Shown piece by piece: positions 1 to 18,848 of a DNA stretch of 20,400 nucleotides (its first letter is position 1; each line of letters starts with the position of its first letter). Both the position numbers and the translations under genes were made by a program. The DNA comes from a virus (lineage: Duplodnaviria; Heunggongvirae; Uroviricota; Caudoviricetes), in the IMG/VR virus record IMGVR_UViG_2734482547_000016; one strand, given 5' to 3'. The notes beneath the pieces were generated by a model that was not told the origin of the DNA, made no database searches, and saw nothing but the letters and a program-made list of their open reading frames with translations.

Positions 1-393
1 ATTCAGGTTATGCCGCTCAATTCGCTGCGTATATCGCTTGCTGATTACGTGCAGCTTTCCCTTCAGGCGGGATTCATACAGCGGCCAGCCATCCGTCATC
101 CATATCACCACGTCAAAGGGTGACAGCAGGCTCATAAGACGCCCCAGCGTCGCCATAGTGCGTTCACCGAAGACGTGCGCCACAACCGTCCTCCGTATCC
201 TGTCATACGCGTAAAACAGCCAGCGCTGACGTGATTTAGCACCGACGTAGCCCCACTGTTCGTCCATTTCAGCGCAGACAATCACATCACTGCCCGGCTG
301 TATGCGCGAGGTTACCGACTGCGGCCTGAGTTTTTTAAGTGACGTAAAATCGTGTTGAGGCCAACGCCCATAATGCGGGCGGTTGCCCGGCAT
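1..393 (-). CDS. insB: IS1 InsB transposase, 3' end lies beyond the window start (partial)
   Basis: Reverse-strand translation from the window start gives ...[18 protein letters not shown], and upstream [29 protein letters not shown]..., matching IS1 InsB; it overlaps insA in a different frame as expected for the insAB' frameshift arrangement. Confidence 0.8.
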
Positions 394-587
394 CCAACAC
401 CATTCATGGCCATATCAATGATTTTCTGGTGTGTACCGGGTTGAGAAGCGGTGTAAGTGAACTGCAGTTGCCATGTTTTACGGCAGTGAGAGCAGAGATA
501 GCGCTGATGTCCGGCAGTACTTTTACCGTTACGCACCACGCCTTCAGTAGCTGAGCAGGAGGGACAACTGATGGAGATGGAAGCCAC
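312..587 (-). CDS. insA: IS1 InsA (transposition regulator, zinc-finger/HTH)
   Basis: 91-aa [46 protein letters not shown]... recognised as IS1 InsA; CxxC...CxxC motif present. Confidence 0.9.
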
Positions 588-1474
588 GGGAGCACCTCAA
601 AAACACCATCATACACTAAATCAGTAAGTTGGCACCATTACCCACAAAGTCTGCGTGGGATATTCTGAAAGAATATCCATAATGTGGAGAGAATCTATTG
701 AAGTGCATGGTGCCGGGTGCCTCCCGGTGAACAAAATGTTCGTGATACCTGTCGGCGACAGAAAAGGTTAATGGTATCACCCCACCGCACAGGGGGATTC
801 ACCATGCAGGAGTTTTCTTAGCAAACTCACTGCGCGCCCGGCAACTCCCAACCACATAAAATGCGGAGTTTGTGGCATTTATGCATATAACTCGCAGGAA
901 TTATCTTAAAAAACTGATGTCGATCCGGATTAAAAAGAAGCAGGTCATCATCAGATGACTGGAAAAAAGGAAAACAAAAAATACTCATCATACAGTTTTG
1001 ATTGCAGGGATGAGCCTGCTATGCACAATATGCAGAATATAAGCAAGATAAAAATATGCAGGCATATTATTTCGGATTTTGTTATTAACACAACCTTTTT
1101 AATAATCATTTGGCATACAATAAACCAGCCCAAAAAGAACCGCCTAAACAGGCGGTTGGTCAATACAAAGGATGCTTCGTCTTTATTATAGTAATCTGAG
1201 GCGTCGGGTGTCTTGTATCAGACAACATATTGTCCCGCTAAACAGCGAATTACAAACCACCCTGCAATGATCTCTCATCTCATTTTATATGAGTTGACGA
1301 CATCAGGATAACGCATCATCAGCCCCTGCCAAGAAATATCAAAACTCCCGCCAGCAATGTGTTATCACAATATTGTAAAAAAAACACAGCACCGAAACTA
1401 TAACTGGTCTCTGTTATAATTTGGAGCAGAAAGACCAGTTGCCCAACTAGCAGCATTCTCCCCTGCTTTCCTGA

Positions 1475-2127: not shown

Positions 2128-2233
2128 AAATATCCCTCCTTTCTCCAGATTTCTTGTGTGCGAAAAACACCTTCTGCATGCATCAGGCGTAATTCTTCTT
2201 TGGTGTAATCGCTGGTTTTTACCCGCCCGTCGA
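2124..2233 (-). CDS. YbcO-like (DUF1364-type putative nuclease) copy A, C-terminal fragment running into the N gap
   Basis: Translation ...DGRVKTSDYTKEELRLMHAEGVFRTQEIWRKEGYL is identical to the C-terminus of the complete ybcO-like ORF at 3004..3294. Confidence 0.6.
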
Positions 2234-2483
2234 NNNNNNNNNNNNNNNNNNNNNNNNNNNNNNNNNNNNNNNNNNNNNNNNNNNNNNNNNNNNNNNNNNN
2301 NNNNNNNNNNNNNNNNNNNNNNNNNNNNNNNNNNNNNNNNNNNNNNNNNNNNNNNNNNNNNNNNNNNNNNNNNNNNNNNNNNNNNNNNNNNNNNNNNNNN
2401 NNNNNNNNNNNNNNNNNNNNNNNNNNNNNNNNNNNNNNNNNNNNNNNNNNNNNNNNNNNNNNNNNNNNNNNNNNNNNNNNNNN
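2234..2483. other. Run of 250 N (assembly gap or masked sequence)
   Basis: Directly visible; interrupts ybcO-like copy A and the 3' end of Q-like copy B. Confidence 1.
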
Positions 2484-3007
2484 AAAGCCATAACCATTGG
2501 TTTGTACAAAATAAATTCTGCCACCTTTAGCCAATGCTCAATGCGTCTTTCACAGGTTCTTAAACTCCATTTCGGGTGTGCATCATTCAGCAGTTCAGCC
2601 ATTTTGCGTTTGGTCATCCCCCGCCCCTCATACCGTTGCCGAAGGACGCTAATCAATCCTGGATGCTCTGCCAGCACCTCACTTATGACCCGATCAATAC
2701 ATAACGCCTCTGCATCAGTACAATGCGCCAGCCAGCTCTTTTGCTTACCGTTAATCATATCCCGCAAAAAAGCCTCAAGTTCAGACTTGTTCAGACCTGC
2801 TTTTTTCATCCTCCGGAGCGCCTCGTTAATTGCCGTTTTTGTCAGCTTTTTAGAGGTCAACATCAGGTTAAACATATTCCCCGTCTTACCGCCACCAATA
2901 TACGACCAGCGCCCCCACATACGTAGTTTTCCCTGAATCCAGACACTTTCCAGCGTGGTGAGACGAAGGTGTTCTCCGCTTTTTCCTGTATTCGTTGGGT
3001 AAATCAT
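2484..3007 (-). CDS. Putative late-gene antiterminator (Q-like), copy B; 3' end lost in the N gap
   Basis: Start MIYPTNTGKSGEHLRL... at 3007 overlapping the ybcO-like stop; about 90% identical to copy A over the first ~145 aa by eye, but with a divergent C-terminal segment (…KWSLRTCERRIEHWLKVAEFILYKPMVMA… versus …EWCFSTCEKRIANWLAVAEYALYIPMRESFAEKMA). Confidence 0.5.
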
Positions 3008-3294
3008 AAATATCCCTCCTTTCTCCAGATTTCTTGTGTGCGAAAAACACCTTCTGCATGCATCAGGCGTAATTCTTCTTTGGTGTAATCGCTGGTTTTT
3101 ACCCGCCCGTCGATTAAATCGTGGCACGAGCTACAGGCAATCGCTGCCTGCATATCGTGTGGCTTTATCGCTGTTCCGCACGTTCCCGCCAGTCGGTAAT
3201 GCGCCAGCACAGACGTTTCCGGATCGTGATTGCAGTAGCCAGGAATTCTGACGGTGCACATCTGCCCCCGCGCCGCTTTACGTAAATCCACCAT
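3004..3294 (-). CDS. YbcO-like protein (DUF1364-type putative nuclease, Cys/His-rich), 96 aa
   Basis: MVDLRKAARGQMCTVRIPGYCNHDPETSVLAHYRLAGTCGTAIKPHDMQAAIACSSCHDLIDGR... resembles the DLP12 YbcO family as I recall it. The ORF track extends to 3375; the start was chosen by homology-consistent length. Confidence 0.65.
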   Translation of the reverse strand: MVDLRKAARGQMCTVRIPGYCNHDPETSVLAHYRLAGTCGTAIKPHDMQAAIACSSCHDLIDGRVKTSDYTKEELRLMHAEGVFRTQEIWRKEGYL

Positions 3295-3468
3295 TACGCA
3301 AACTCCAGTAGCTGCGCGGCCACATTTTCGACCTGTTCCGGAGAGGAAAATTTTCGGTACAGGATCCAGTTCCACAGCACATTCAGTACAGATTTATAAA
3401 CCTGCTGAAACTCGGTTTCCTCCATATTCGCAAACGCGATAGATTTCGCCCGACGCCCACGACTACCA

Positions 3469-3718
3469 NNNNNNNNNNNNNNNNNNNNNNNNNNNNNNNN
3501 NNNNNNNNNNNNNNNNNNNNNNNNNNNNNNNNNNNNNNNNNNNNNNNNNNNNNNNNNNNNNNNNNNNNNNNNNNNNNNNNNNNNNNNNNNNNNNNNNNNN
3601 NNNNNNNNNNNNNNNNNNNNNNNNNNNNNNNNNNNNNNNNNNNNNNNNNNNNNNNNNNNNNNNNNNNNNNNNNNNNNNNNNNNNNNNNNNNNNNNNNNNN
3701 NNNNNNNNNNNNNNNNNN
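3469..3718. other. Run of 250 N (assembly gap or masked sequence)
   Basis: Directly visible; removes most of the ybcN-like gene. Confidence 1.
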
Positions 3719-3901
3719 GTAATCGAATCCCAGTTGCAGGAGTTTGAAAAAACGCTTGTGGAATGCGTAGTTACGCACACGCTTAAAGTCTGCGTGTATC
3801 CACTCACCTATTTTGATTTGATGCAGAAAATCGCAACTCTCCGGCGTCGCCGGGAGAAGTAAACCAGAAGAAGTTTGTTTGACCAGTTGTATATGCGCCA
3901 T
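3719..3901 (-). CDS. YbcN-like (DUF1367-type) nin-region protein, N-terminal 61 aa only; the rest is in the N gap
   Basis: MAHIQLVKQTSSGLLLPATPESCDFLHQIKIGEWIHADFKRVRNYAFHKRFFKLLQLGFDY... resembles the N-terminus of lambdoid YbcN-family proteins. The ORF-track segment 3383..3468 is in frame only by coincidence of N counting. Confidence 0.55.
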
Positions 3902-4176
3902 TTCTCAATCTCTCGATGGCGCAGTGCAGCAGATGCCAGTTGTTCAGGCTGACGTATAAAGTATAAATAAACTGGTTCCAGTGTAAAGCCCCCACATTGA
4001 TGGAATAAAAATCAAACAATAGATTGCTGGGATAAAAATACAACGCTTATTATTAAAAGCGGTTAGACAAATTAAATTTTAATGTTATGCAAATCTGCCA
4101 GATTAGCATAATATCTCATTTGAAAACCGCTGAAATAACAATCTTACCAGGATTAATCATATTAAGGTGAGTAAAT

Positions 4177-4263
4177 ATGGAAAACAACAAATCTGCACAT
4201 TACGCTCCTTTTTTATCTGTAATACTTTTTGTATTTTGTTGTGTATGGGCGGTATTTTTATAA
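4177..4263 (+). CDS. Candidate small hydrophobic peptide (28 aa, one predicted transmembrane helix)
   Basis: MENNKSAHYAPFLSVILFVFCCVWAVFL; SD-like AAGGTGAG 6 nt upstream of the ATG; stop lies 14 nt before a strong intrinsic terminator. Below the ORF-track size cutoff. Confidence 0.3.
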   Translation: MENNKSAHYAPFLSVILFVFCCVWAVFL

Positions 4264-4276
4264 AACACACCCACAA

Positions 4277-4310
4277 ATAAATCAAACCCGCTACAGCGGG
4301 TTTGATTTAT
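4277..4310. terminator. Bidirectional intrinsic terminator (15-bp perfect stem ATAAATCAAACCCGC / GCGGGTTTGATTTAT, loop TACA)
   Basis: Immediately downstream of the S8 peptidase stop on the minus strand and of the small ORF on the plus strand; A/T-rich flanks. Confidence 0.7.
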
Positions 4311-4317
4311 ATAGTTG

Positions 4318-6582
4318 TTATACGGAAACTGGCACACGAGCAGGCAATGGATAGTGAGCCCAGTTATTAGCATTTAAAGCTCTTACGCCATCAGCATAAA
4401 CTTGTGTGTTTCCATCTAATGATTTTAAAGTTACTACAATAGTTACAGGTAAAGGCTCCATTAAGGCCGGTTCATTCGCTCTCAACGTTGTTTTAGCCTG
4501 AAGAGCCCAGTTACCCGAAGTAATTCCTTTATTAAATGCCTTGCGATGAATTTTTACTGGTGACCACTTTCCACCATGCTCAATTTGAGCTCTCTCATAT
4601 CCAGATTGACCGTTTTCTCCTTCCATAGGCACTTTTCCTTTTATAGTATTATTCTCAATTAAGCCAAAACTTAGCTCTACGTTCGCGCGAACATATTCAC
4701 TGCCGGCATTAGGGTTCAGTGGTGGTGCATATGCAGCAGTAATTACAATCTCACCTTTAAATTTTCCATTTTGAATAAGTGCCGATGGTATGGGATAGTT
4801 TTCCTTTCTCCACCTCACCCCAGGAACCAAGAATGTTTGGAAAATCAGAGTAAACCTATCATCACTATCATATAAGGTCTCAATAACTTCATTAGGAATT
4901 CCCGCTCCCAAATAGCGTCTTTCACTTGGCGAGTAATCAGGAGAAGATAATTGAGCGGAATGAATTAATAATGCTTTAATCAATGATGGTGAAACATTAA
5001 AGTCTGAATTAGTGGCTATTCTCTGCCATGTATGCGCAGCTAAACTTGCCACAATTGGAGCAGCAAAACTAGTACCAAAATTAGAGCAAAGCCTATTATC
5101 TGGCCCTACGACCTTTAAACTGCTTGCTCCTACATTCCAAGGTCTATGAACCCCACCGCCAGCATGGATTATATCTGGCTTTGGAGTAAATACAGGCCCA
5201 GGGCCACGACGAGTATATGGTGTCGGTGTTCCAATTTCACTTAAAGCATCATTAGCTTCCATATGAGAAACTGAACCAACTGTTAGTGCTCGGACTGACT
5301 CTCCAGGAGAGGAAATTAAATCAGCACCTCCAAGCGGATCAGGATTTGGCCATGTACGTATAGGTTCATCTACATAATTACCTGCAGCAACTACAAACAA
5401 AATACCAAATTTATCGCTGAGTCGATCTAACTCCATCGCAAAATCACTAAACGTCTGCTCATTACATGGTCCGCCTCCCAAAGACAAATTCCAGACTTTT
5501 ATATCTGGTCTTTTATTTACAGCATCTGCTAGCCTCAGAATTAAATCTGATATATAAGATCCATTTTCATCTAAAGCACAAACATCATGGATTTTAGATT
5601 TTGTATCAGGAATCCATGGATGATTGTCATTTAAAAAATGAGCGCCTGATATCAATGAAGACACCATAGTCCCATGTTCATAACTCGTATCAGGAGGAAT
5701 TACGTATGTTTCCCTACTCACTACCCAAGGAGTAATTGTTGCCGCGATGGGGCTTACCCCAGTGTCAAATACAGCAACAATGGGTAATTCTTCTGATGGT
5801 ACGGGAAAGCTATTTGTTTCAATGCCAACAGAATCACTTACACTAACCGGGAATGCTGAATATTTTGGTTCTGGAATTAACGTTCTTATACCCGGGTAAT
5901 CAATGAGAATGTCTAATATATATCTATCATTTGGGGATAAATCCATTATCCTTAATAAGGGAAGACCACATTTTTGTCTAATCTCATCATATTTAACTCC
6001 GTGTTGTTCTAATATAGAAATAACGTTTTCATAGTTGTTGTAAGTTGCATCTTCACCTGTGTACTCAAATAGTCGTACAAGGATGTTTGATGATTCAAAC
6101 AAACCATCAGTGCCTCCTGGAACCTTCCTATTCTCATCCCAAGGTTCAATGCGCTCAATCGCGCTTAGATTAGCCAAAATCGCTTTAATATTCCGATGTA
6201 AAATGACTGACTCTAATACGTCAAAACAGCCGGCATGAGCAGCAACCAACATTTCATCTATTTTGGCATGACCGGCATTTTGCAATCCAGCATCTTGAGC
6301 AATTTTGTTCGGCCTATGCGTTTTGGCTATTCCCTGGTCTCTTAATTTGAAAACCAAAGTACCCAAGCTTCCAGGGTACTCTGAAAGTTTGGATTCTAAA
6401 TAATGTTTACTGGTTGTTAAATTTCTTACTAGCCCTTGTCTATATTCGGCTGTTACATCAACCAATACCTTTGCCCCACCGCCAGCGTTTACTATTGCAC
6501 CCAAGTCACTACTGGAAAAAGGGATTCTTAACATTGGGTTTGTAACTTTTGCGTTACTAAACTGTGTACCCCTTCTGCTCAT
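4318..6582 (-). CDS. Subtilisin-like S8 serine peptidase, 754 aa, no signal peptide, with long N- and C-terminal extensions
   Basis: Asp-His-Ser order with canonical motifs: VAVFDTG (Asp273), HGTMVSS (His303), AAGN oxyanion Asn (about 402), GTSFAAP (Ser505). N-terminus is hydrophilic. SD AGGAG upstream; start overlaps the upstream ATPase ORF by 26 nt. Confidence 0.85.
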   Translation of the reverse strand: MSRRGTQFSNAKVTNPMLRIPFSSSDLGAIVNAGGGAKVLVDVTAEYRQGLVRNLTTSKHYLESKLSEYPGSLGTLVFKLRDQGIAKTHRPNKIAQDAGLQNAGHAKIDEMLVAAHAGCFDVLESVILHRNIKAILANLSAIERIEPWDENRKVPGGTDGLFESSNILVRLFEYTGEDATYNNYENVISILEQHGVKYDEIRQKCGLPLLRIMDLSPNDRYILDILIDYPGIRTLIPEPKYSAFPVSVSDSVGIETNSFPVPSEELPIVAVFDTGVSPIAATITPWVVSRETYVIPPDTSYEHGTMVSSLISGAHFLNDNHPWIPDTKSKIHDVCALDENGSYISDLILRLADAVNKRPDIKVWNLSLGGGPCNEQTFSDFAMELDRLSDKFGILFVVAAGNYVDEPIRTWPNPDPLGGADLISSPGESVRALTVGSVSHMEANDALSEIGTPTPYTRRGPGPVFTPKPDIIHAGGGVHRPWNVGASSLKVVGPDNRLCSNFGTSFAAPIVASLAAHTWQRIATNSDFNVSPSLIKALLIHSAQLSSPDYSPSERRYLGAGIPNEVIETLYDSDDRFTLIFQTFLVPGVRWRKENYPIPSALIQNGKFKGEIVITAAYAPPLNPNAGSEYVRANVELSFGLIENNTIKGKVPMEGENGQSGYERAQIEHGGKWSPVKIHRKAFNKGITSGNWALQAKTTLRANEPALMEPLPVTIVVTLKSLDGNTQVYADGVRALNANNWAHYPLPARVPVSV

Positions 6583-7711
6583 ATGCTCCTGACTCCTTCA
6601 GAATGTTTGAAATTACTCTTGATGTAAGTTTGTACAAATTAGCAAGAACTCTGATAGAAAATAATTTTTTATCTTTAGAACGTAACCAACGAATTTCATC
6701 TTCGTAAGTGCTTAAATTTACACCTTCCATAAGCGATTGAGCAAGATACAAACGCCTATACAATTTATGGTGATTTATCACACTTGCACCTTCAATAACT
6801 GCATCCCTACGTGCATCCAAGCTCACCTGTTCAATTATTGCTCCGGATAATCCTTCCGATTTTCTTGATAAATCACTTAAATCTAGATCGCAACATATCA
6901 TATTCTTTAAACGATTTTTCCAAATTAACTCTCTCTGATGTATGTCAGGCAGAGGCATTGGAATTCTGAAGCTAAATCGCCTCCAGATTGCAGGATCCAG
7001 AAGTTGCTCATGGTTAGTTGAGGCAATAATTACCGTATCCTCTGATGCCGCATCCATATTCTGCAATAGTGAAATGACAACTCGCTGAAGCTCACCTATA
7101 TCTCTCTCATTACCTCTTGCTCCAGCTAAAGCATCAAATTCGTCTAAAAAAAGCACTGATGGCCTCTGCATTACATAATCGAAAACCTGTCTAAGATTTT
7201 TGCTGGTTTGTCCCAATAAACTACTAATCAAAGTATCGCAACGCACTGTAAGAAGTGGAAAATCTAAGCGGGTAGCGATGTACTTAGATAACATAGTCTT
7301 ACCTGTTCCTGGCTTTCCATACACGAGCATACGACTCGGCAATGCTGCATCAGCTTTAACAAACTCATCATAACGTTGAACATTAGTGATAAACTCTTCA
7401 ACACGGGTACTGATTGCTGCAGGCAGAAAAATCTCTGAACTGTCTAATTTAGGATAACTGACATCAACAGTGTTGAGTCGACTATCAATATCTACCGGTA
7501 ATGAGCCCAGAGATATCCCACCTCCAGCCCTTTGAGCTCCTGCCAACGCCTGGGGAGCTCTAAGCAACCTTTCTCTTATCATTCTGGCTTGCTTGACCTC
7601 CCCTTTTTGTTCGAGCTTATCTGCCAGCAACCCAGCATAATTACTAGCCATCGAAGCATTTGCCTTTGTTGCACCTTCAATGATTTTTAACACTTCTGAT
7701 AAATAATCCAT
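6557..7711 (-). CDS. AAA+ ATPase, 384 aa
   Basis: Walker A GKPGTGKT (aa 132-139), Walker B VLFLDEFD (aa 186-193), downstream IIASTN sensor-1-like motif; no TM segment; translationally coupled to the peptidase gene. Confidence 0.85.
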   Translation of the reverse strand: MDYLSEVLKIIEGATKANASMASNYAGLLADKLEQKGEVKQARMIRERLLRAPQALAGAQRAGGGISLGSLPVDIDSRLNTVDVSYPKLDSSEIFLPAAISTRVEEFITNVQRYDEFVKADAALPSRMLVYGKPGTGKTMLSKYIATRLDFPLLTVRCDTLISSLLGQTSKNLRQVFDYVMQRPSVLFLDEFDALAGARGNERDIGELQRVVISLLQNMDAASEDTVIIASTNHEQLLDPAIWRRFSFRIPMPLPDIHQRELIWKNRLKNMICCDLDLSDLSRKSEGLSGAIIEQVSLDARRDAVIEGASVINHHKLYRRLYLAQSLMEGVNLSTYEDEIRWLRSKDKKLFSIRVLANLYKLTSRVISNILKESGAYEQKGYTV

Positions 7712-7904
7712 TCAACACTCCCACAACAAAAAGCCACAGCAATCAAAAAATGAGCACGCAGAATCAAAATACTCTCTAATCGTAACGCATTTTGAGATTT
7801 TTGATACGTTTTTTTGGGATTATGTAACGCCAAATGGTCATTTTGTGTCAGAAAAATAAATCTTAGTACCGAGAATATGTAGCTTCCATCCTTCATCGTT
7901 CTAT

Positions 7905-8336
7905 TCATCCCTGATCTCCAAGCCTCTCTCGAAAACCATTCTGATAAAACGCCAGCACACGCTGCATAACTTCACTCTTCCGGCACTCGCGACAGATTAT
8001 GTTCAGACGCCTGTCGTAGCGGCGTATTTCTCCGTCTGGTAATGACCAGATAAGGTCCGGATCAACCACAGATGGTTTCTTCACCTTTGCCCTGGATAGT
8101 TTTTTGCGGGCATTTTGCCAGTCCTTACGAGCCTGTTCAGACGGGAATAACCCGTAACCAGAGTTGTATACATCGCCACTGGCAACCAGCTCTCTGGCGA
8201 GAACGCTCATCAGATATCTTGTCGCACCTGTCTTGGCCTCCAGTTGTCGTAACGTCTCGCGTCCACTCCGGCGTACTAGCTCAACAACCTGCCCTTTAAT
8301 TTTTTCCCGCTCTTCTTGTGTAAATACTTTTGCCAT
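7905..8336 (-). CDS. Hypothetical phage protein, about 143 aa
   Basis: ORF with GGAGG 5 nt upstream of ATG (MAKVFTQEEREKIKGQVVELVRRSG...); basic and charged. The ORF-track start at 8351 is a TTG; the ATG at 8336 is preferred. Confidence 0.5.
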   Translation of the reverse strand: MAKVFTQEEREKIKGQVVELVRRSGRETLRQLEAKTGATRYLMSVLARELVASGDVYNSGYGLFPSEQARKDWQNARKKLSRAKVKKPSVVDPDLIWSLPDGEIRRYDRRLNIICRECRKSEVMQRVLAFYQNGFRERLGDQG

Positions 8337-8351
8337 AAGCGCCTCCGGCAA

Positions 8352-9113
8352 TCACTTTTCCGATACAACACGGCGGGAAGAATCAGCAATCTGTCGAACA
8401 ATATCCCGGTGCTTGTTCAGCTCCCGCAGCGCGGCGCAGACTCGCTCCCACTTCTGGACATGATTTTTCGCCCGACGCAGTTCGCGGTTTGCCATATGCA
8501 GCGATGGCAAAATCAGGTCATCAGCTCGCGTTTCAGTAAACGATGGCAGCGACTGCACAATGTCCGCCACAGTTTCTGTTTTAATATCTTCCTGTGTTGC
8601 CGCTTCCTGTACTGGTAACGCAACACCGGCTGGCTGAGGAAAGGTTTTACCATCAGTTTCCGTTACCGATGCAGCTTTCGGCTCTGCTGGTAAATCATCG
8701 CCCGGCATGCAGTAACGAAATTTACCGTTCTGATTAACGCGAAGCAGACGACCTTTGCTGATTGCCATTGCCAGCGTTGAAGCCACTTTGCGTGATGTGG
8801 TACCAAACAATGTAGCCAGCTCATCCGCCGTTTGTGGTCCACGTTGTTCAATCGTCGCAGTTAAATCGCTCTCTGAAATTTTCGCGACTGTTGCCGTGGT
8901 AGTTTCTTCCGGCAGTTCTGCCGGCGCTGGCTGTTCCTGCTGAACGTTGTTATCAGCCACACGCCAGGTGTACGCGCTTTTATCAACGAAACCAGCCTTT
9001 TTCAGTTCCCATAGTTCGTTCAGCACTTCTTCACGACTGATATCAAGTCGCGCAGCAAGTTCTATGGATGTGGCTTTTCCCATTGCTTTCAGTACGTCAA
9101 AAACAGTCTCCAT
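8352..9113 (-). CDS. Hypothetical phage protein with a probable N-terminal winged-helix DNA-binding domain (possibly DUF1627-type)
   Basis: [44 protein letters not shown]... looks like a wHTH; an acidic Pro/Glu-rich linker follows; SD GGGAGA upstream of the ATG at 9113. Sits just downstream of the DnaC-like gene as in other lambdoid prophages. Confidence 0.55.
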
Positions 9114-9135
9114 TAAATTTTTCTCCCGGTAAAAA

Positions 9136-9882
9136 TTACTTCGCAATTCCTGGCTGGACGACATTCGGACGCCAGCTCTCCCAGTTGAAATTCACCCATC
9201 GCCCGCCGTTCATGGTCATGCGATCCATAATCCGCTCGCCAAGCAATGTTTTCATGGCCTCATAGTTCAGGTTTGTCAGCATCCCCACGCTGCGCATCGA
9301 CGCTGTCCGGCGATCAACAATCTGGTGCAGCACCACCTGCTCGTTTTTCGTCTCGCGCTGAATGCCAATTTCATCAAGAACCAGCAGATCCACTTCGCAC
9401 AGTTCCCGCAAAAATTTTTCGCCTGACTGCCCGTCGTCATAGCTGGCGTGCAGGGCACTCATAACATCAGCCACGGTAACCACAATCACTGTCTGACCGT
9501 CTTTCAGCAGGCGATTCCCGATAGCTGCCGCTAAGTGGTTCTTCCCGGTACCAGGTTTTCCGCTGAACGCAAAATTTGTACACCCGGTCATCAGTTCATC
9601 AGCGATGGATTTCGCCTGACTCAACGCGTATCGCTGCCCTTCGTTCTGCACCTGGTAATTCGAAAACGAGCATTTGCGGTGCAATGGCTGGATGCCAGAG
9701 CGATTCAGAATTTTTTCCACCCGCAACTGACGATTCTGACGGTTGATCTCCTCACAACGTTTCTGGCCTTCGGAAAGTTGCCACTCGCGCCACTCCGCTA
9801 CCGTCTTGAATGGCGCGGTTACATGTGACGGGGCCAGTCTGCGGATACGTTCAAGAACGTCGCCTGTCGCAATATTTTTCAT
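9136..9882 (-). CDS. ydaV: DnaC/IstB-family replicative helicase loader (P-like), 248 aa
   Basis: Walker [16 protein letters not shown] and Walker B LLVLDEIG; same length and position as Rac YdaV (recollection). Confidence 0.75.
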
Positions 9883-9888
9883 GGTCAG

Positions 9889-10677
9889 TTACCCCCTGAA
9901 GCCTGGCGGGATCGCACTATCCGGTAACGAGACGGTGTTAACCTGTCGGAGTAACGTCTCAGGTCGAACACCTTTCGGCGCGAACAAGCCCTGGTATTCG
10001 TTGGCGATGCTGTGTCGAATCACCTGCTCAGGTGAAAAACCCTGCTGGCGGAATTTTTCCAGCTCCCGTATCGCCCCGTTAGCGCCCTGCTCCGTTCGAA
10101 TCGGTTTTCGCAATGCCTGCCTGAACTGAACCCACTCATGCCAGAGTGTTTCCGGCAACCAGTCAGGCAGCTCGATAGCCTCCGGTTCGAATTTTTTAGA
10201 CGCTCGTTTTTGGCGAGGGGGATTTAGGGGGAGATAAGTATTTATATCTTCCTCTTTCTCTTCCTCTGGTAACGCTTTTTGATCCGTTTTTGTAACGCTG
10301 GCAGCGTTACCTTTTCGTTTCAGTTCTCGTATTTTTGTTACTCTCTCGTTTGTAACCGCCCGTTTTTTAGAGCTTTTCCCGTTATGGCGCTCAAAGTTAG
10401 GAAGCGACAACACACCATTAGTTTCGACCAGCCATCCAACCTGAATTAACGCATCAGCAAAACCAGCCATAAAAGTGATGCGATCTATTGCACTTTTTGT
10501 AACGCCGCGAGCGTTACACTCTGCGTTACCGTCTATCATTTGTTGATCCGCCCATGCCCAGAAGCGAATGACTTTCCCTAATGCGGCATCTGGATCAATA
10601 TTCAGAATCTCAGCAAGCCTGAATATTTCCGGCTTATCCGGCGTAATAACCTCGAGCTTTATCCAGTTTGAAGCCAT
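9889..10677 (-). CDS. Replication initiation protein (YdaU-like, O-like role), 262 aa
   Basis: Immediately upstream of the DnaC-like gene (6-nt spacing); SD AGGTGA; contains and is preceded by iteron-like palindromes; central low-complexity basic/acidic linker. Confidence 0.6.
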   Translation of the reverse strand: MASNWIKLEVITPDKPEIFRLAEILNIDPDAALGKVIRFWAWADQQMIDGNAECNARGVTKSAIDRITFMAGFADALIQVGWLVETNGVLSLPNFERHNGKSSKKRAVTNERVTKIRELKRKGNAASVTKTDQKALPEEEKEEDINTYLPLNPPRQKRASKKFEPEAIELPDWLPETLWHEWVQFRQALRKPIRTEQGANGAIRELEKFRQQGFSPEQVIRHSIANEYQGLFAPKGVRPETLLRQVNTVSLPDSAIPPGFRG

Positions 10678-10754: not shown

Positions 10755-11177
10755 TCAATGCACTACGACAGAATCGCTAGGAGAACCGCCGCCGCTGAAA
10801 TGTGCTTTACGGTAAACGGCCTGGACTGCATCATCATGCGCATCAATTGCCGTACTCAGTGCATCCTGTGCCGCCAGTAATGCACGGCGTTCCAGGGTAT
10901 CGAAGATGCAGAGTCGGTGACGCAGCTCGCGAGGAAGAATTGCCAGAACCGCAGGGATCAGTTTCTGAATTTTTTCCCTTTGCGCATTCGTTTCACCTTT
11001 CAACCAACGATGATAGATATTCTGCTGATTGTTCCAGTCCTTGCCTGGTACCAGGGGCAATTCGCCGCCCCCCTGGCGCAGATATTCTTCAGTAATTGCG
11101 TTAGCGACCCACGCCTGCCCTTTTTCGGCTGCCAGGGCTAACAACACTGATTCGATGTGCTCATGCTTGATTTTCAT
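10755..11177 (-). CDS. ydaT: YdaT-like protein (CII-analogue regulator of Rac-type prophages), 140 aa
   Basis: MKIKHEHIESVLLALAAEKG... resembles Rac YdaT (recollection); start overlaps the stop of the Cro-like gene (ATGA). Confidence 0.6.
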   Translation of the reverse strand: MKIKHEHIESVLLALAAEKGQAWVANAITEEYLRQGGGELPLVPGKDWNNQQNIYHRWLKGETNAQREKIQKLIPAVLAILPRELRHRLCIFDTLERRALLAAQDALSTAIDAHDDAVQAVYRKAHFSGGGSPSDSVVVH

Positions 11178-11428
11178 GAATCAACTCCCATCAGCTTTTT
11201 CGTAGTAGTTTTATTTCTGCCAATAGTTAAAATTGCATCGGCAGAAAATAATCCGTTTGATGCATGAGCGATTTTTTCAGCGTAATTTGTTTCGCCGGTA
11301 TATTCTGTGCGAGGCAATTTTCCGTTATCCATCCATTTGTAGATTGCTCTTTGGCTGACACCACAAACGTCGGCCACAACAGAAACGCGAACAGTTTTGA
11401 TTACATCTTCAAGTGTTTTCTGGTTCAT
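11174..11428 (-). CDS. Cro-like HTH regulator (YdaS-like), about 84 aa
   Basis: HTH-like segment VSVVADVCGVSQRAIYKWMDNGKLP; SD GAGGA before the ATG at 11428; divergent from the repressor gene. The ORF-track start at 11500 would overlap the repressor promoter, so the internal start is preferred. Confidence 0.6.
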   Translation of the reverse strand: MNQKTLEDVIKTVRVSVVADVCGVSQRAIYKWMDNGKLPRTEYTGETNYAEKIAHASNGLFSADAILTIGRNKTTTKKLMGVDS

Positions 11429-11507
11429 ATCATCCTCACAATGTGAACTTTGAGTACATGCTATAACAGAACTGACAGTACATTCAAGAGCGAATATCAT
11501 TGAACTT
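11429..11507. promoter_or_regulatory. OR-like divergent promoter/operator region between the repressor and the Cro-like gene
   Basis: 79-bp intergenic region between divergent regulators; two direct AGTACAT motifs (11453..11459, 11477..11483). Confidence 0.5.
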
Positions 11508-11927
11508 ATGGTTCATGAAGATAAAGCGCGTAAAGAGTTCGCCAGTAGGCTTGCGCTAGCCTGTGAAAACGCTGGTTATGAACAACATGGAAGGCAGGCA
11601 GAAATTGCCCGTCGAATGAAATTAACACCAAAAGCGGTTAGCAAATGGTTTAATGGTGAAACAATTCCTCGCCGAGAGAAATTAAGGGAATTAGCAACAC
11701 TCATTGGAACAACACCAACCTATCTTTTGGGAGAGGATACAGAAGAAAGTGGACAGATACGTTTCTATCAGGAGTTAAATCCAAGACAAAAAATCATCAT
11801 TGACCTTCTGGACGAGCTCCCTGACAGTGAGACAGATGAACTTTTAAAAACTCTTGAGGAGAAAAAACAGAAGTACAATGCAATTTACGAAGAGTTAGCA
11901 CGAAAGAAAAAACAAAAAGCCTCTTAA
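11508..11927 (+). CDS. Prophage repressor, XRE-family HTH (RacR-like), 139 aa
   Basis: HTH segment QAEIARRMKLTPKAVSKWFNGETIPRREKLRELATLIG; no S24 peptidase domain; C-terminal charged coiled-coil-like tail; divergent from the Cro-like gene. Confidence 0.7.
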   Translation: MVHEDKARKEFASRLALACENAGYEQHGRQAEIARRMKLTPKAVSKWFNGETIPRREKLRELATLIGTTPTYLLGEDTEESGQIRFYQELNPRQKIIIDLLDELPDSETDELLKTLEEKKQKYNAIYEELARKKKQKAS

Positions 11928-12359: not shown

Positions 12360-12515
12360 ATGCAAAAAATCGACCTCGGCAACAACGAATCCATGGTGTG
12401 CGGCGTGTTCCCCAACCAAGATGGAACGTTCACTGCTATGACGTATACCAAAAGCAAAACATTTAAAACCGAAACTGGTGCGCGCCGATGGTTGGAGAAG
12501 CACACAGTAAACTAA
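12360..12515 (+). CDS. ydaF: Small prophage protein (YdaF-like, DUF1391-type), 51 aa
   Basis: MQKIDLGNNESMVCGVFPNQDGTFTAMTYTKSKTFKTETGARRWLEKHTVN resembles Rac YdaF (recollection); stop overlaps the convergent sieB stop. Confidence 0.55.
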   Translation: MQKIDLGNNESMVCGVFPNQDGTFTAMTYTKSKTFKTETGARRWLEKHTVN

Positions 12516-13000
12516 CGATTAAAACGTCTACTCCTGCTGTTCCAGAATAACTTCATAAAATGGGAGTATTTTTCGGTGACGAGATAATAAGAACAGTTTG
12601 CGCTATCACTCTGATGTTGAATGATGCCCTTCCGTTCTAATTTTTTCATAACCGGGTTACGGCAAGGAGAAGTGATAATAAGATTTCCTGTTTTAAGGAA
12701 ATCTTTAAATACAGCTATTTCTTTCTCAGATAAACGAAGCAATACTCGTTGCTCTGGTAGTAATGAATAATGCTTTTGAATATGTGCTCGCAATCTTGAG
12801 AAGGAAATGGCGACCACGAAAGAAAAGGCAAAAACGATAATCTGAAAGAGCCAAGGTATTTCAGTATAAGCATTGAATGCGACAGTAAACTCTTTCGGTA
12901 TCAGCCAGAGAGTGAGACCAAAAATGATAATCGTATACATAAGTCTTTCGAGTGGCTCGTTAGCAAAAAGTTTCAACAATGGAGTAAATACATCCAACAT
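12512..13000 (-). CDS. sieB: Superinfection exclusion protein B (SieB), membrane protein, 162 aa
   Basis: MLDVFTPLLKLFANEPLERLMYTIIIFGLTLWLIPKEFTVAFNAYTEIPWLFQIIVFAFSFVV... matches SieB of Rac/lambda as recalled; hydrophobic N-terminal half. The ORF-track start at 13123 is an upstream extension. Confidence 0.8.
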   Translation of the reverse strand: MLDVFTPLLKLFANEPLERLMYTIIIFGLTLWLIPKEFTVAFNAYTEIPWLFQIIVFAFSFVVAISFSRLRAHIQKHYSLLPEQRVLLRLSEKEIAVFKDFLKTGNLIITSPCRNPVMKKLERKGIIQHQSDSANCSYYLVTEKYSHFMKLFWNSRSRRFNR

Positions 13001-13430
13001 ATCAATAACTCTCAACTGTAAGGGTATTGAAATGTTAACACAAGCTCTCGCTGTAGGGGTATAGCCGAGACCACCGAAGCCCGGAGGTGGTGAAATAAAA
13101 CTGGGCGCAACACGAAGGCGCATTTCCGATATCCATAAAGAGTCGGTCTTGTCTGTTAAATTTAAATGGTGGGAGTGCGCCTCCGGTTGTAAATAACGAC
13201 ATTGCTGTGTGTAGTCTTGGCGGCATCAGTTTTTTCTTGAAGTTCGGCTGATGTCCGCCCTTTTTAAAGTGAATTTTGTGATGCGGTGAATGCGGCTAAG
13301 CGCACGCGGAACAGTTAAAAGCATCAGTGTTATGGGGGGATTATCCGGCGTTAATTGTTAACTGGTTAACGTCACCTGGAGGCACCAGGCACCGCATCAA
13401 CAAGGTTCATTTGTGAAAATGGAGATAATT

Positions 13431-14273: not shown

Positions 14274-17200
14274 ATGAGCACAAAACCACTCTTCCTGTTA
14301 CGGAAAGCGAAAAAATCATCCGGTGAACCTGACGTCGTCCTGTGGGCAAGCGACGATTTTGAATCGACCTGTGCCACTCTGGACTACCTGATCGTTAAGT
14401 CAGGTAAAAAACTGAGCAGCTATTTTAAAGCTGTTGCCACGAATTTTCCTGTCGTTAATGACCTGCCCGCTGAAGGTGAGATCGATTTTACCTGGAGTGA
14501 ACGCTATCAACTCAGCAAAGACTCCATGACATGGGAACTAAAACCGGGAGCAGCACCAGACAACGCTCACTATCAAGGCAATACCAACGTCAACGGCGAA
14601 GACATGACTGAGATTGAGGAGAATATGCTACTCCCAATTTCTGGCCAGGAACTGCCCATTCGTTGGCTTGCTCAACACGGCAGCGAAAAACCGGTAACGC
14701 ACGTTTCACGCGACGGACTCCAGGCATTACACATTGCTCGGGCTGAAGAACTACCGGCTGTTACTGCCCTGGCTGTTTCCCACAAAACCAGCCTGCTCGA
14801 CCCGCTGGAAATTCGCGATCTCCACAAACTGGTTCGTGACACTGACAAAGTTTTCCCTAATCCTGGTAATTCAAACCTGGGACTGATAACTGCTTTTTTC
14901 GAAGCATACCTGAACGCTGACTACACCGATCGAGGACTGCTGACAAAAGAGTGGATGAAGGGTAATCGTGTTTCACACATCACTCGCACGGCTTCCGGTG
15001 CTAATGCTGGCGGCGGAAACCTCACCGATCGCGGCGAAGGTTTCGTACACGATCTGACGTCACTGGCGCGCGACGTAGCCACTGGCGTACTGGCCCGTTC
15101 AATGGATCTGGACATCTATAACCTTCATCCGGCACACGCTAAACGCATTGAGGAAATTATCGCTGAAAATAAACCGCCCTTTTCTGTTTTCCGCGACAAA
15201 TTCATCACCATGCCTGGCGGGCTGGATTATTCCCGCGCCATCGTGGTTGCGTCCGTAAAAGAAGCACCAATTGGGATCGAGGTCATCCCCGCGCACGTCA
15301 CTGAATATCTGAACAAAGTACTGACTGAAACCGATCATGCCAACCCTGATCCGGAAATCGTGGATATTGCCTGCGGTCGCTCCTCTGCCCCGATGCCGCA
15401 GCGAGTAACAGAAGAAGGAAAACAGGATGATGAAGAAAAACCGCAACCATCTGGAACAACGGCAGTTGAACAGGGAGAGGCTGAAACAATGGAACCGGAC
15501 GCAACTGAACATCATCAGGACACGCAGCCGCTGGATGCTCAGTCACAGGTAAATTCTGTTGATGCGAAATATCAGGAACTGCGGGCAGAACTCCATGAAG
15601 CCCGGAAAAACATTCCATCAAAAAATCCTGTCGATGCCGATAAATTGCTTGCTGCATCACGTGGTGAATTTGTTGACGGAGTTAGCGACCCGAACGATCC
15701 GAAATGGGTTAAGGGGATCCAGACTCGCGATTCTGTGTACCAGAACCAGCCAGAAACGGAAAAAACCAGCCCGGATGTGAAACAACCTGAGGCAGTAGTG
15801 CAACAGGAACCGGAAATAGTCTGCAATGCCTGCGGTCAGACTGGCGGAGATAACTGCCCTGACTGTGGGGCGGTGACGGGCGACGCAACATACCAGGAAA
15901 CATTCGATGAAGAGAATCAGGTTGAAGCTAAGGAAAAAGATCCGGTGGAAATGGAAGGCGCTGAACATCCGCACAATGAGAATGCTGGCAGCGATCCGCA
16001 TCGTGATTGCAGTGATGAAACTGGTGAAGCGTCAGCTCCTGTAGCAACTGAAATCATGTGGCCGTCATATTTCGAGCCTGGCCGCTATGAAAACCTCCCG
16101 AACGAGGTTTATCACTCCGCCAACGGAATAAGCAGCACGATGCTGAAGGATGCCCGTATCAGCCTGATGTATTACCACGGACGGCACATTGCCGGAACTA
16201 TTCCGAACGAGGAAAGTGATGCACTGCTGCGTGGGCGGATCATTCACAGCTATGTTCTGGAAACGGATAAATTCGCTGATGAATATGCCATTCCGGTACC
16301 GGTTCCTGAATATGTGGTTACTACTTCTAGCGAACTGATCGCCATCATTAAAAAACACAATGCCAGTCTGCCAGCACTGATGACACCAGAGCAGATGAAA
16401 GAGTGGATCGAAAGCTACAACAGCACTCTTATACAGCCACTGTCTGTAAGTGCCGGGGCCGAAGAAACAGGCATCCTTTACGGTTCGCTTCCGGTGGAAT
16501 TTCGGCGTATTCCTGAGGGGGAAAAACACACAGCATCAGCAATGAAAGCCTGTATTAAAGAATACAACGCAAGCCTCCCTCCTCTGTTGAAAACCAGTGG
16601 AGCACGGGAGCAGCTTCTGGATCAAATTGAAACTGTAGACCCAGAACTGGCAAAAAAAGAACGTGCTAAATCTTTGCCTTACAACATCAGTGGCACAAAA
16701 GAGCAATTAACCGAAATCGCACGGAAAATTCGCCCGGAACTGGTGACACTGGAGGACTGGCAAAAACGCCAGCAAGAAGAAAATGCCGGGAAAACGTTTA
16801 TCAGTCCGGAGATGTATGAACAGGCAAAAAATATTCACGCGGCACTGCAAAACAATACCGATGCAGCAAGGCTACTCAACCACCCGGATCGCAAATCTGA
16901 AATCAGCTATTTCGGGTTTGATGAAGAAACCGGGCTGGAAATCAGGGTCCGTCCTGATATCGAAATCCGGCTGCCATACGAAAGCATTTGCGCTGACGTG
17001 AAGTCAGTCAGCCTCGGTTATGTGCGACAGGAACGACTTAAAGATCGCCTGCACCGTGAAATTATTGAGCGTGATTATCACCTCAGCGCCGCAATGTATT
17101 GCGATGTGGCAAACCTGGACAAATTTTTCTGGATCTTCGTCAACAAAGATGCTGGCTATCACTGGGTGGCAGTCGTGGAAGCCTCGCAGGAACTCCTGGA

Positions 17201-17345
17201 ACTTGGTCGACAGGAATATCGCCGGACGCTACGCCAGATAAACGAAGCCCTGGAGACAAACAACTGGCCAGCACCGATTACCGAAAGTTATACCGACGAA
17301 TTAAACGACTTTGATCTTCGTCGTCTTGAAGCACTGAGCATCTGA
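14274..17345 (+). CDS. recE: RecE-family exonuclease VIII (5'-3' dsDNA exonuclease), 1023 aa
   Basis: N-terminus [21 protein letters not shown]... and a C-terminal PD-(D/E)xK-type nuclease region (…[10 protein letters not shown]…VKSVSLGYV…) resemble RecE; acidic low-complexity central linker; followed by an annealing-protein gene. Confidence 0.75.
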
Positions 17346-17356
17346 GGAAGGACACA

Positions 17357-18409
17357 ATGAACGAATTAACTCAACAAGAAAATATTAACTCTAATGTTGC
17401 GGTTTTCAGCCCTCAGTCCCTGGCTGCAATTCAGACATTTTCCCAGGTAATGGCTTCCGGCATGGCTACTGTACCGGAACACCTCCGGGGAAATCCATCA
17501 GACTGCATGGCCATCACCATGCAGGCGATGCAGTGGCAAATGAACCCTTACGCAGTAGCTCAGAAAACTTTCGTTGTGAATGGTGTGCTCGGATATGAAG
17601 CGCAACTGGTTAATGCCGTAATCAGTACTCGTGGGCCGCTAACCGGGCGTATTGAATATGACTGGTTCGGGCCGTGGGAAAAAATTATCGGGAAATTTGA
17701 AATCAGGAAGAGCGACAAAGGGAAAGAATATCGTGTACCTGGCTGGAAGCTGGCCGATGAAAACGGGATCGGTGTTCGTGTCCAGGCAACACTACGCGGC
17801 GAAAGTAAACCACGCGTACTGGAATTACTTCTGGCGCAGGCCAGAACACGTAACTCAACGCTATGGGCCGACGATCCTCGCCAGCAGCTTGCCTATCTAG
17901 CGCTGAAACGCTGGGCGCGCCTTTATTGCCCCGAAGTGATTCTTGGAGTGTACACCAGGGACGAACTGGACGAGCCACAGGAAAAAATCATTAATCCGGT
18001 TCAGGAACATAAAAACACTTCCGCTTGCCGCGCGGAACGTGAAACAACAATTATTGAGCAGGATGCCGGGGAAAACTGGATCGATGCTTTCCGTGAACGT
18101 ATTGAGCAGGCACAAAGCACCGGGGAAACAACAGCACTTCGCCAGGAAGTGGAAGATCATAAAAATACACTTGGCGCTCTCTATACGGAACTTAAAGGAA
18201 AAGTGGTTCAGCGTCATCACCGTCTCAATGCTATTGCCCGTATCGAGAAGATGATAAATGACCTACCTTCTTCAGGTGATCCAGAAGCAGAACAAAAATT
18301 TACTGCTCTGGAAAATACGCTGAATGCTGCCCGGCCACATCTGGGTGAATTATATGAGGCGTATAAAACGACACTGACAGATATGAAACCAGAATATATC
18401 GGCTCCTGA
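17357..18409 (+). CDS. Putative single-strand annealing protein (RecT-like partner of RecE), 350 aa
   Basis: Immediately downstream of recE (11-nt spacing) on the same strand; segment LWADDPRQQLAYLALKRWARLYCPEV resembles the conserved RecT region; length differs from the K-12 RecT I recall. Confidence 0.5.
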   Translation: MNELTQQENINSNVAVFSPQSLAAIQTFSQVMASGMATVPEHLRGNPSDCMAITMQAMQWQMNPYAVAQKTFVVNGVLGYEAQLVNAVISTRGPLTGRIEYDWFGPWEKIIGKFEIRKSDKGKEYRVPGWKLADENGIGVRVQATLRGESKPRVLELLLAQARTRNSTLWADDPRQQLAYLALKRWARLYCPEVILGVYTRDELDEPQEKIINPVQEHKNTSACRAERETTIIEQDAGENWIDAFRERIEQAQSTGETTALRQEVEDHKNTLGALYTELKGKVVQRHHRLNAIARIEKMINDLPSSGDPEAEQKFTALENTLNAARPHLGELYEAYKTTLTDMKPEYIGS

Positions 18410-18472
18410 TATTGACTTTGGCGGTGTAGCCTCACCGCCATCACAAAATTTTATTTTATGAGAGAAAAGACA

Positions 18473-18667: not shown

Positions 18668-18848
18668 AATTACCGCCACTATTGAAAAGGAAGGTGGCAC
18701 TCCTACTAACTGGACAAGGTACTCAAAAACAAAATTAACCAAATCAGAATGCGAAAAAATGCTCTCAGGTAAAAAAGAAGCAGGCGTTTCCAGAGAGCAG
18801 AAAGTAAAACTGATAAATTTTAATTGCGAGCAACTTCAGTCCTCGTGA
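18648..18848 (+). CDS. Small prophage protein (YdaC-like), about 62-66 aa
   Basis: ORF overlapping the ralR stop with SD GGAGG (alternative ATG at 18660); position corresponds to ydaC in Rac. Confidence 0.45.
   Translation: MEVFMYKITATIEKEGGTPTNWTRYSKTKLTKSECEKMLSGKKEAGVSREQKVKLINFNCEQLQSS

Follow-up and report, generated by a model that had tools for sequence, protein, structure and literature searches.

Pairs of an AAA-ATPase and a subtilase show toxin-antitoxin behaviour in pTiC58, in SGI1 (SgiAT) and in mycoplasmas (PMC5006074, PMC8562856), and the ATPase acts genetically as an antitoxin that keeps the protease toxin in check (PMC5006074, PMC8562856, PMC13069673). In these homologues the toxin, IetS, is an intracellular serine protease. 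The founding members came to light as factors that stabilise pTiC58 and Salmonella genomic island 1 (PMC5006074, PMC8562856, PMC13069673). Phage protection by IetAS needs the protease active site (PMC13069673, citing Gao 2020); defence by the three-gene ietHAS system depends on protease activity, and its ietA mutants are unclonable (PMC13069673). The ietAS of B. cereus acts by abortive infection, and its trigger is a single phage protein, the product of SPbeta yosG (bioRxiv 10.1101/2022.08.27.505566). In E. coli, where ietAS is often located in prophages, the ECOR52 system confers limited protection alone and is synergistic with Zorya II against T3 (bioRxiv 10.1101/2022.08.21.504612).

The locus analysed here lies in a window of 20,400 nucleotides, a term used for the whole stretch of DNA that was studied, and its features are collected in Table 1. 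The two genes are clearly a complete and intact copy of IetAS (Gao et al. 2020), an ATPase-plus-protease system already described. The PADLOC model for IetA (PDLC02196) aligns with residues 1-374 of the ATPase over profile positions 1-371 of 374 (E 3.1e-142), and the model for IetS (PDLC02197) with residues 12-753 of the protease over positions 3-748 of 749 (E 7e-301). Both NCBIfam equivalogs are also passed, NF042959 (IteA) with 524.8 bits (cut-off 510, a small but positive margin) and NF042956 (IteS) with 1043.4 bits (cut-off 900). In RefSeq, loci 99.6-99.9% identical to this one carry the names 'anti-phage ATPase IteA' and 'S8 family anti-phage peptidase IteS'. The nomenclature is divided, IetAS being IteA/IteS at NCBI and Gao_Iet in DefenseFinder. 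The first-pass annotation, made from the letters alone, had named ietAS as the likely match and had proposed profile searches of both proteins as a check; these searches place the proteins in the IetA and IetS families, so that the guess was right and the finding is real but not new, the family being already known. Its alternative, an undescribed ATPase-protease module, does not apply to a pair that matches the IetA and IetS models. The models for CBASS-associated TRIP13 were also considered for the ATPase and rejected, their E-values being 4e-16 and 4e-12 versus 3e-142 for IetA, and neither HORMA nor CD-NTase (cyclase) genes were found near IetA. The pair differs from the TRIP13-HORMA regulators of CBASS in having no HORMA, cyclase or nuclease partner and in using a subtilase as effector.

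Table 1. Coordinates of the IetAS cassette and of its flanking genes (positions in the window)
Feature	Position	Strand	Remarks
Whole cargo block (leader, ietA, ietS, terminator)	4265..7940	-	Low GC; bounded by breaks in flank homology
ietA (NCBI iteA)	6557..7711	-	384-aa classical-clade AAA+ ATPase; genetic antitoxin in homologues
ietS (NCBI iteS)	4318..6582	-	754-aa S8 subtilase, predicted cytoplasmic; toxin/effector in homologues
Overlap of ietA 3' end and ietS 5' end	6557..6582	-	26 nt
Intrinsic-terminator-like hairpin	4277..4310	-	8 nt after the ietS stop; stem 15 bp, loop 4 nt
Conserved non-coding leader	7727..7833	-	Upstream of ietA; two GCGTTAC repeats about 44 nt apart
73-aa ORF	7687..7908	-	Fills the gap between the DUF977 gene and ietA; coding status doubtful
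DUF977/Ren-like gene	7905..8351	-	Upstream flank; last gene of the replication module; outside the system
DUF1367 gene	3383..3901	-	Downstream flank; first gene of the nin-like region; outside the system

The gene structure given in the first-pass annotation, two co-directional and overlapping genes, proved exact in the list of open reading frames, to which the minus strand can be added. Both genes start with ATG and are read in different frames; the ietS start is preceded at 5 nt by AGGAG and that of ietA by GGGAG. The overlap, together with the AGGAG element, suggests translational coupling of ietS to ietA. In all 39 related loci with upstream DNA, which come from different species, ietA lies on the same strand directly upstream of ietS, and the junction is estimated at -44 to +1 nt. 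Downstream, the strong terminator that had been ascribed to the pair is borne out by a hairpin with a CCCGC/GCGGG stem core and an adjoining T-rich tract, whose RNA fold of -26 kcal/mol (z = -5.28 versus shuffled sequences) was equalled by none of 200 shuffles. The hairpin falls inside the cargo-specific segment and, being palindromic, could terminate transcription in both directions.

IetA carries the Walker A motif GKPGTGKT (K138) and the Walker B motif LFLDEFD (D190/E191), both intact as had been stated, followed by the sensor-1 residue N233 and the arginines R244/R245, and all these residues are invariant in an alignment of 32 sequences. The protein matches Pfam AAA (PF00004, E 2.6e-30) and is organised in an N-terminal three-helix bundle (residues 1-62), an AAA+ core with lid (about 98-329) and a C-terminal three-helix unit resembling an HTH (about 336-372). 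Pfam searches with its N- and C-terminal parts gave no match up to E 10, and a sequence search of the PDB returned no solved IetA, only p97-type ATPases. The nearest folds are protein-remodelling AAA+ ATPases of the FtsH, Vps4 and p97 types. The position of pore loop 1 is occupied by L165-L166-G167, which lacks the usual aromatic residue and therefore weakens the simple picture of a threading unfoldase.

In IetS, the catalytic triad D273, H303 and S505 that had been read from the letters is intact, and the oxyanion asparagine can be assigned to N402; the four residues are invariant in an alignment of 42 sequences, and the protein matches Pfam Peptidase_S8 (E 4.3e-26). A family-specific N-terminal alpha/beta region (about residues 1-260) precedes the catalytic domain (about 265-550) and a C-terminal beta-sandwich (about 570-740), so that the fold is a subtilase core plus a beta-sandwich. 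The N- and C-terminal parts gave no match in Pfam up to E 10, and the PDB sequence search returned no solved IetS, only generic subtilases. A simple, crude hydropathy test detected neither a signal peptide nor a transmembrane segment in IetS or IetA, in agreement with the earlier reading: the highest Kyte-Doolittle means over 19 residues are 1.48 and 1.07, respectively, and both N-termini are hydrophilic. Action inside the cell had been called unusual for a subtilase, and this holds in so far as intracellular subtilases are uncommon, although they are known.

A subtilase could also be a secreted or envelope enzyme and the AAA+ protein its dedicated maturation or chaperone partner, the two genes forming an operon for protease export or processing and not for immunity. 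This is extremely improbable here, since (i) the N-terminus of IetS is hydrophilic and no segment reaches transmembrane strength; (ii) over its full length the protein matches the IetS family and not families of secreted subtilases; (iii) comparison of the IetS N-domain profile with subtilisin propeptides by hhalign was negative (probability below 2%); and (iv) IetS is invariably paired with a soluble AAA+ ATPase, in a cassette that a prophage carries as cargo. The Pfam Inhibitor_I9 propeptide had likewise no match in any of the 42 IetS family members.

Comparison with the described systems places the pair with IetAS of Gao et al. 2020, in which an AAA+ ATPase gene is likewise followed by that of an S8 peptidase of about 750 residues and which shows no structural difference to it. 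The IetAS of pTiC58 (Yamamoto et al. 2009) and SgiAT share the order of an AAA-ATPase antitoxin upstream of a subtilisin-like protease toxin and the location on a mobile element (PMC5006074, PMC8562856), but they are distant, and the role ascribed to them was that of a stability module, not of phage defence. Homologues on Ti/Ri-type plasmids of Agrobacterium and Rhizobium were taken as a proxy for pTiC58 IetS: in a tblastn search of plasmids their S8 genes had 25-27% identity to IetS over residues of about 260-738 only (E 1e-21 to 1e-27), and the N-terminal 260 residues had no match in these plasmid homologues. The result suggests homology of the protease and C-terminal domains, short of demonstrated orthology. 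As the characterised toxin-antitoxin members are distant, the antitoxin and toxin roles are assigned here from the family. The ietHAS system (Liu-DS4) shares the IetA and IetS components and adds a SNF2-type helicase, ietH (PMC13069673). No helicase ORF is present within the cargo block, whose neighbours are the DUF977 (Ren-like) and DUF1367 genes. The Mycoplasma pair TA132/133, likened here by its description, combines an AAA-ATPase antitoxin of 353 residues with an S8 toxin of 757 residues in a gapless operon, and expression of the toxin in E. coli leads to filamentation (PMC8562856); it is chromosomal and belongs to a Mollicute, whereas the E. coli pair is borne by a prophage.

The prophage setting confers on the pair the character of accessory cargo, as had been supposed from its position between the replication genes and the nin/Q region. 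Low GC, homology breaks and the varying content of the slot agree on this point. Upstream of the pair lie ydaU (O-like), ydaV (DnaC-like), a DUF1627 gene and the DUF977 gene, whose product matches Pfam DUF977 (E 2e-28) and phrog_142, 'Ren-like exclusion protein'; downstream lie the DUF1367, YbcO and DUF1133 (Q-like) genes. The DUF1367 gene was called from the RefSeq annotation of a near-identical locus; in the window it is partly masked by Ns (3469-3718). Homology to the flanks in E. coli prophages devoid of ietAS stops at about positions 4264 and 7941 of the window (positions 546-547 and 4223-4224 of the query, which spanned 3719-8700), and in other prophages the same slot holds hokD, a methyltransferase or hypothetical genes. 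The segment between these limits has a GC content of 0.398, and the remainder of the window one of 0.466. Taken with the family assignment, it is very probable that an intact IetAS makes up a self-contained cassette of about 3.7 kb, the cargo of the ren/nin slot in a lambdoid E. coli prophage of the Rac type, and the locus is one more example of defence cargo in this slot of Rac-type prophages. SieB and a RalR/RalA module are also found on this prophage. In related prophages tRNA genes lie downstream of Q; the window contains none, and IS1 occupies that place.

Upstream of ietA, the leader has about 80% DNA identity to that of an ietAS locus of Citrobacter freundii, with 55 of 60 positions identical in the first block, and it may be the site of a candidate promoter or operator. 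A sigma-70 consensus scan of the minus strand from 7712 to 7960 gave no match, and an Rfam search of the cassette, leader included, gave none either. The small ORF of this region starts at an ATG that overlaps the TGA stop of the DUF977 gene (ATGA), and it also overlaps the start of ietA. It matches phrog_9743 over its full length and is called 'kinase (fragment)' in the phage record ON470595, while PGAP does not annotate it and its frame is truncated and altered in the Citrobacter locus.

Of 5426 complete E. coli genomes, 78 contain the 3.4 kb pair at no less than 99.6% identity, with the genes labelled iteA/iteS by RefSeq, and the pair is also present in one deposited phage genome; the flanks of the near-identical copies are mosaic. 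Only this allele (at least 99.6% identical) occurs in the E. coli genome collection. A supposed second allele, in 98 genomes at 80-90% identity, was discarded when a repeat search with the coding region only attributed it to flank matches. Against the Citrobacter copy, dN/dS is 0.058 for ietA and 0.082 for ietS, and purifying selection on both genes is strong. These data bear on whether the intact frames might be a silent passenger, unexpressed from the repressed prophage and with no function in the lysogen. Such silence would fit the negative scan for a consensus promoter in the 194-nt gap upstream of ietA and a gene order in which transcription could reach the pair only by reading through from the early rightward operon, an operon repressed in the lysogen. 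However, weak or non-consensus promoters are common in AT-rich horizontally acquired genes, and the strength of the selection, the conservation of the leader between E. coli and Citrobacter, the presence of a terminator of its own and the near-identity of the cassette among mosaic flanks in 78 genomes all argue for a functional unit, so that silence is very unlikely.

For the IetAS cassette we propose a model built on the family. In the uninfected lysogen, IetA, as a hexameric AAA+ ATPase of the classical clade, would spend ATP to hold IetS inactive by binding or remodelling it, possibly via the large N-terminal domain of the protease. Upon infection by another phage, a phage product would upset this restraint, and the freed IetS would cleave cellular or phage proteins, stopping growth and aborting the infection, which would protect the population of lysogens and, with it, the prophage. 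The first-pass annotation had pictured an NTPase sensor coupled to a protease effector; this is not the logic of the literature, in which the ATPase behaves genetically as the antitoxin of the protease toxin (PMC5006074, PMC8562856, PMC13069673). It might serve as the sensor as well.

As a toxin-antitoxin pair, ietAS may in addition stabilise the prophage. Taken to its limit, ietAS would be mainly an addiction module acting by post-segregational killing and without a meaningful role against phages: once the prophage was lost or excised, stable IetS would remain without fresh IetA, and the cured cell would be killed. The stability functions of the founding members, the location of the cassette on a mobile element and the limited protection given by E. 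coli ietAS alone speak for this reading. Against it, the curated anti-phage equivalogs come from this very sequence clade, the family protects against phages in a manner that requires the protease site, and the B. cereus member acts by abortive infection. Addiction as the main function is thus unlikely, though less so than silence or secretion, and addiction and anti-phage roles are compatible with each other.

Two features of the proteins point to a possible scheme for how the family works. The N-terminal region of IetS, about 260 residues with conserved alpha/beta units, may stand at the position of a subtilase prodomain, in which case IetS would be a zymogen that is never cleaved and whose inhibition is kept by the AAA+ ring of IetA. 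The conserved HTH-like unit of IetA could bind the repeat-bearing leader for autoregulation, in the manner of a type II antitoxin, or alternatively could bind phage nucleic acid as a sensor. Should both parts prove right, IetAS would act as an immune switch of a 'held zymogen' type, driven by ATP and governed by a nucleic-acid-binding AAA+ regulator, a combination that we regard as tentative and rather doubtful.

The locus by itself opens no new question, since its genes already receive their names from standard pipelines such as PGAP and PADLOC. For annotation, its value is the presence in the window of a bona fide IetAS cassette of the defence/toxin-antitoxin kind. What scientific interest remains attaches to how the family works: which substrates the protease cuts, how the ATPase restrains it and which phage cue releases it. 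Leads on these points are the N-domain of IetS, the conserved leader with its repeats and, in IetA, the HTH-like tail and the pore loop without an aromatic residue.

Profile searches decided the identity of the gene pair. One product matches the PADLOC model of IetA (PDLC02196, E 3.1e-142) and the other that of IetS (PDLC02197, E 7e-301), both over essentially the full length, and the NCBIfam cut-offs are exceeded by IetA (NF042959, 'anti-phage ATPase IteA', 524.8 bits, cut-off 510) and by IetS (NF042956, 'S8 family anti-phage peptidase IteS', 1043.4 bits, cut-off 900). The name ietAS, which the first-pass annotation had put forward while proposing such searches, is supported by these scores. 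Among the 5426 complete E. coli genomes, 78 carry the 3.4-kb coding region at 99.6% identity or more, each time as a single chromosomal copy under the RefSeq names iteA/iteS. One deposited phage genome, that of Escherichia phage vB_EcoS-683R6 (ON470595), also has the pair, under generic names, and the PHROGs entries for the two proteins (phrog_3757 and phrog_3964) are each tagged 'unknown function'. The window IetA is one residue (S274C) apart from WP_000385105.1, and between the window IetS and the sampled copies there are 1-6 differences, none at a catalytic residue. The locus is thus an already known ietAS, since standard pipelines name its genes and the prophage location was previously reported; the earlier suggestion of an undescribed ATPase-protease module falls with it.

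The ORF listing returned the two genes exactly as they had been described from the sequence alone, overlapping by 26 nt, with the ribosome-binding sequence of ietS (AGGAG, 5 nt before the ATG) placed within the 3' end of ietA and GGGAG ahead of the ietA ATG. IetA contains an AAA domain (Pfam PF00004, E 2.6e-30) whose Walker A (GKPGTGKT, K138) and Walker B (D190/E191), both claimed to be intact, are invariant in a family alignment of 32 sequences, as are sensor-1 N233 and R244/R245. In IetS the Peptidase_S8 domain extends over aa 268-544 (Pfam, E 4.3e-26), and the claimed triad D273, H303 and S505 together with the oxyanion N402 is invariant among 42 sequences. Neither a hydrophobic N-terminus nor a TM-strength segment was found in the two proteins by Kyte-Doolittle hydropathy only, a crude test (maximum 19-residue means of 1.48 for IetS and 1.07 for IetA), in line with the proposed lack of signal peptide and TM segments. 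The operon's own strong terminator is a hairpin 8 nt past the ietS stop, with a 15-bp stem, a 4-nt loop, a GC core and a T-rich tail (-26 kcal/mol; z = -5.3 vs dinucleotide shuffles). As the ORF, motif, hydropathy and hairpin checks all agree, every factual element of the first-pass annotation is confirmed.

The pair was also correctly taken for accessory cargo between the replication genes and the nin/Q region. The GC content of the cassette is 40% vs 47% in the remainder of the window, and homology of the flanks with ietAS-less prophages ends at ~4264 and ~7941, so that the insert includes its own leader and terminator. In three E. coli prophages (L003, L004 and L005) the same slot holds hokD with two hypothetical genes on the opposite strand, hokD with a SAM-dependent methyltransferase, or several small hypothetical genes, an apparent cargo hotspot between DUF977 and the nin region. 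Given the DUF977 match to phrog_142, ietAS is inserted at the equivalent of the site that follows ren in phage lambda. Among other ietAS carriers the upstream DUF977 gene is constant, while the downstream nin region is either of the same type as here or different (DUF968, RusA, antiterminator), a changing flank that is ordinary lambdoid mosaicism.

Features of the window (prophage genes assigned from Pfam and from RefSeq annotation of near-identical loci)
Feature	Position	Strand	Remark
IS1 copy	1-~642	-	cut by left edge of window
insA	312-587		Zn-ribbon and HTH domains, E 1e-21 to 1e-31
STnc100 sRNA match	651-837	-	Rfam 86.6 bits, gathering score 47
DUF1133 / Q-like	1585-2127	-
Masked run	2234-2483		250 N
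YbcO	3004-3375	-
DUF1367	3383-3901	-	unreliable ORF call, spans N run
Masked run	3469-3718		250 N
Terminator hairpin	4277-4310
ietS	4318..6582	-	754-aa ORF
ietA	6557..7711	-	384-aa ORF
IetA three-helix unit	~6596-6706	-	aa ~336-372
73-aa ORF	7687-7908	-	probably spurious
Non-coding leader	7727-7833	-	107 nt
DUF977	7905-8351	-	phrog_142 'Ren-like exclusion protein', E 2.6e-46
DUF1627	8352-9164	-
YdaV (DnaC-like)	9136-9882	-
YdaU-like	9889-10677	-
YdaT	10755-11177	-
YdaS-like	11174-11500	-
Repressor	11508-11927	+
SieB superinfection exclusion	12512-13123	-	Pfam SieB, E 3e-31
RecE	14274-17345	+
Divergent recombination block	16043-18420	+
RecT	17357-18409	+
Lar/RalR restriction-alleviation toxin	18458-18667	+
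RalA antisense antitoxin sRNA	18666-18844	-	Rfam RF02694, 215 bits
Excisionase	18924-19163	+
Integrase	19165-20400	+

By gene content the window is a Rac-type lambdoid prophage adjoining ttcA. Since a SieB gene is present beside IetAS, the prophage has at least two anti-phage functions, and RalR/Lar with RalA makes a second toxin-antitoxin module. For the 3' part of recE and all of recT, megablast gave no match to L001 (a near-identical RefSeq locus) or L002, which are otherwise similar, and the recT product has 350 aa vs 269 aa in the Rac prophages compared; the block is a different recombination-module allele, i.e. mosaic exchange. The IS1 copy, abutted by the STnc100 match, lies downstream of the Q-like gene, at the site taken by tRNA-Gly/tRNA-Thr and lysis genes in related prophages; no tRNA genes were found in the window. 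Two masked runs of exactly 250 N make ORF calls spanning them (e.g. 2219..3127) unreliable; the second takes out the central part of DUF1367, the gene immediately downstream of the cassette.

With each species represented by one genome, a scan gave 43 IetS loci, chiefly in Pseudomonas, Burkholderiales and Enterobacteriaceae. In all 39 with upstream DNA, ietA is directly upstream on the same strand, at an estimated junction of -44 to +1 nt. Low dN/dS against the Citrobacter freundii copy (0.058 for ietA, 0.082 for ietS) indicates strong purifying selection on both genes. Plasmid S8 genes of Agrobacterium/Rhizobium, the group of the founding pTiC58 system, are 25-27% identical to the window IetS in a match covering the protease and C-terminal parts only. 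The family is heterogeneous and deep, and the window copy falls in the clade curated by NCBI as anti-phage.

Structural and regulatory leads were not decisive. The AF2 model of IetS (pLDDT 81.6, pTM 0.86) predicts an N-terminal stretch of ~260 aa, conserved and alpha/beta in structure, and a beta-sandwich at the C-terminal end, both without a Pfam match. Alignments of the model to uncleaved pro-subtilisins exceed the mature-domain length; a profile test against subtilisin propeptides was negative. In the IetA model (pLDDT 78.8) the C-terminal end forms a confidently predicted three-helix unit (FSIRVLANLYKLTSRVISNILKE), with S352, R354, L356, Y360 and R365 invariant in the family alignment, that looks like a helix-turn-helix; it has no Pfam family match, and its profile matches weakly the HTH-like parts of mitochondrial ribosomal proteins mS45 and mL58 (E 9e-5). 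The pore-loop-1 position (L165-L166-G167) is devoid of the usual aromatic residue. The leader upstream of ietA, ~80% identical to the Citrobacter freundii ietAS locus (55/60 in its first part), contains two GCGTTAC repeats ~44 nt apart and no detectable sigma-70 consensus, and is a candidate operator/promoter. The 73-aa ORF filling the DUF977-ietA gap overlaps the DUF977 stop with its ATG (ATGA) and the ietA start with its end, and matches phrog_9743; the ON470595 record annotates the ORF as 'kinase (fragment)'. PGAP leaves it uncalled, its frame is not maintained in Citrobacter, and it is probably no gene.

IetAS entered the literature as a stability module of pTiC58, a toxin-antitoxin pair in which the protease is the toxin and the ATPase its antitoxin; SgiAT of Salmonella genomic island 1 behaves likewise, as does a mycoplasma ATPase/protease pair (PMC5006074, PMC8562856). 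IetAS was later reported as anti-phage (Gao et al. 2020, cited by PMC13069673); defence requires protease activity, and in the related three-gene ietHAS mutated-ietA constructs could not be made (PMC13069673). In Bacillus cereus a homologue works through abortive infection and turns toxic on co-expression of the SPbeta gene yosG (bioRxiv 10.1101/2022.08.27.505566). E. coli ECOR52 ietAS, described as often prophage-borne, gives limited protection alone and synergizes with Zorya II against T3 (bioRxiv 10.1101/2022.08.21.504612). By analogy with these homologues, the ATPase would hold a toxic protease in check until a phage product frees it, leading to abortive infection. An IetA hexamer would spend ATP to hold or remodel IetS, and infection would upset this restraint, allowing IetS to cut its targets. 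The family might work as a 'held zymogen' switch governed by an AAA+ regulator that carries an HTH, a reading that bears on the family mechanism rather than on the window locus and seems rather unlikely. Being a toxin-antitoxin-like pair on a prophage, IetAS may also stabilize the prophage, a role compatible with defence, and the DUF977/nin slot is worth mining for further defence genes.
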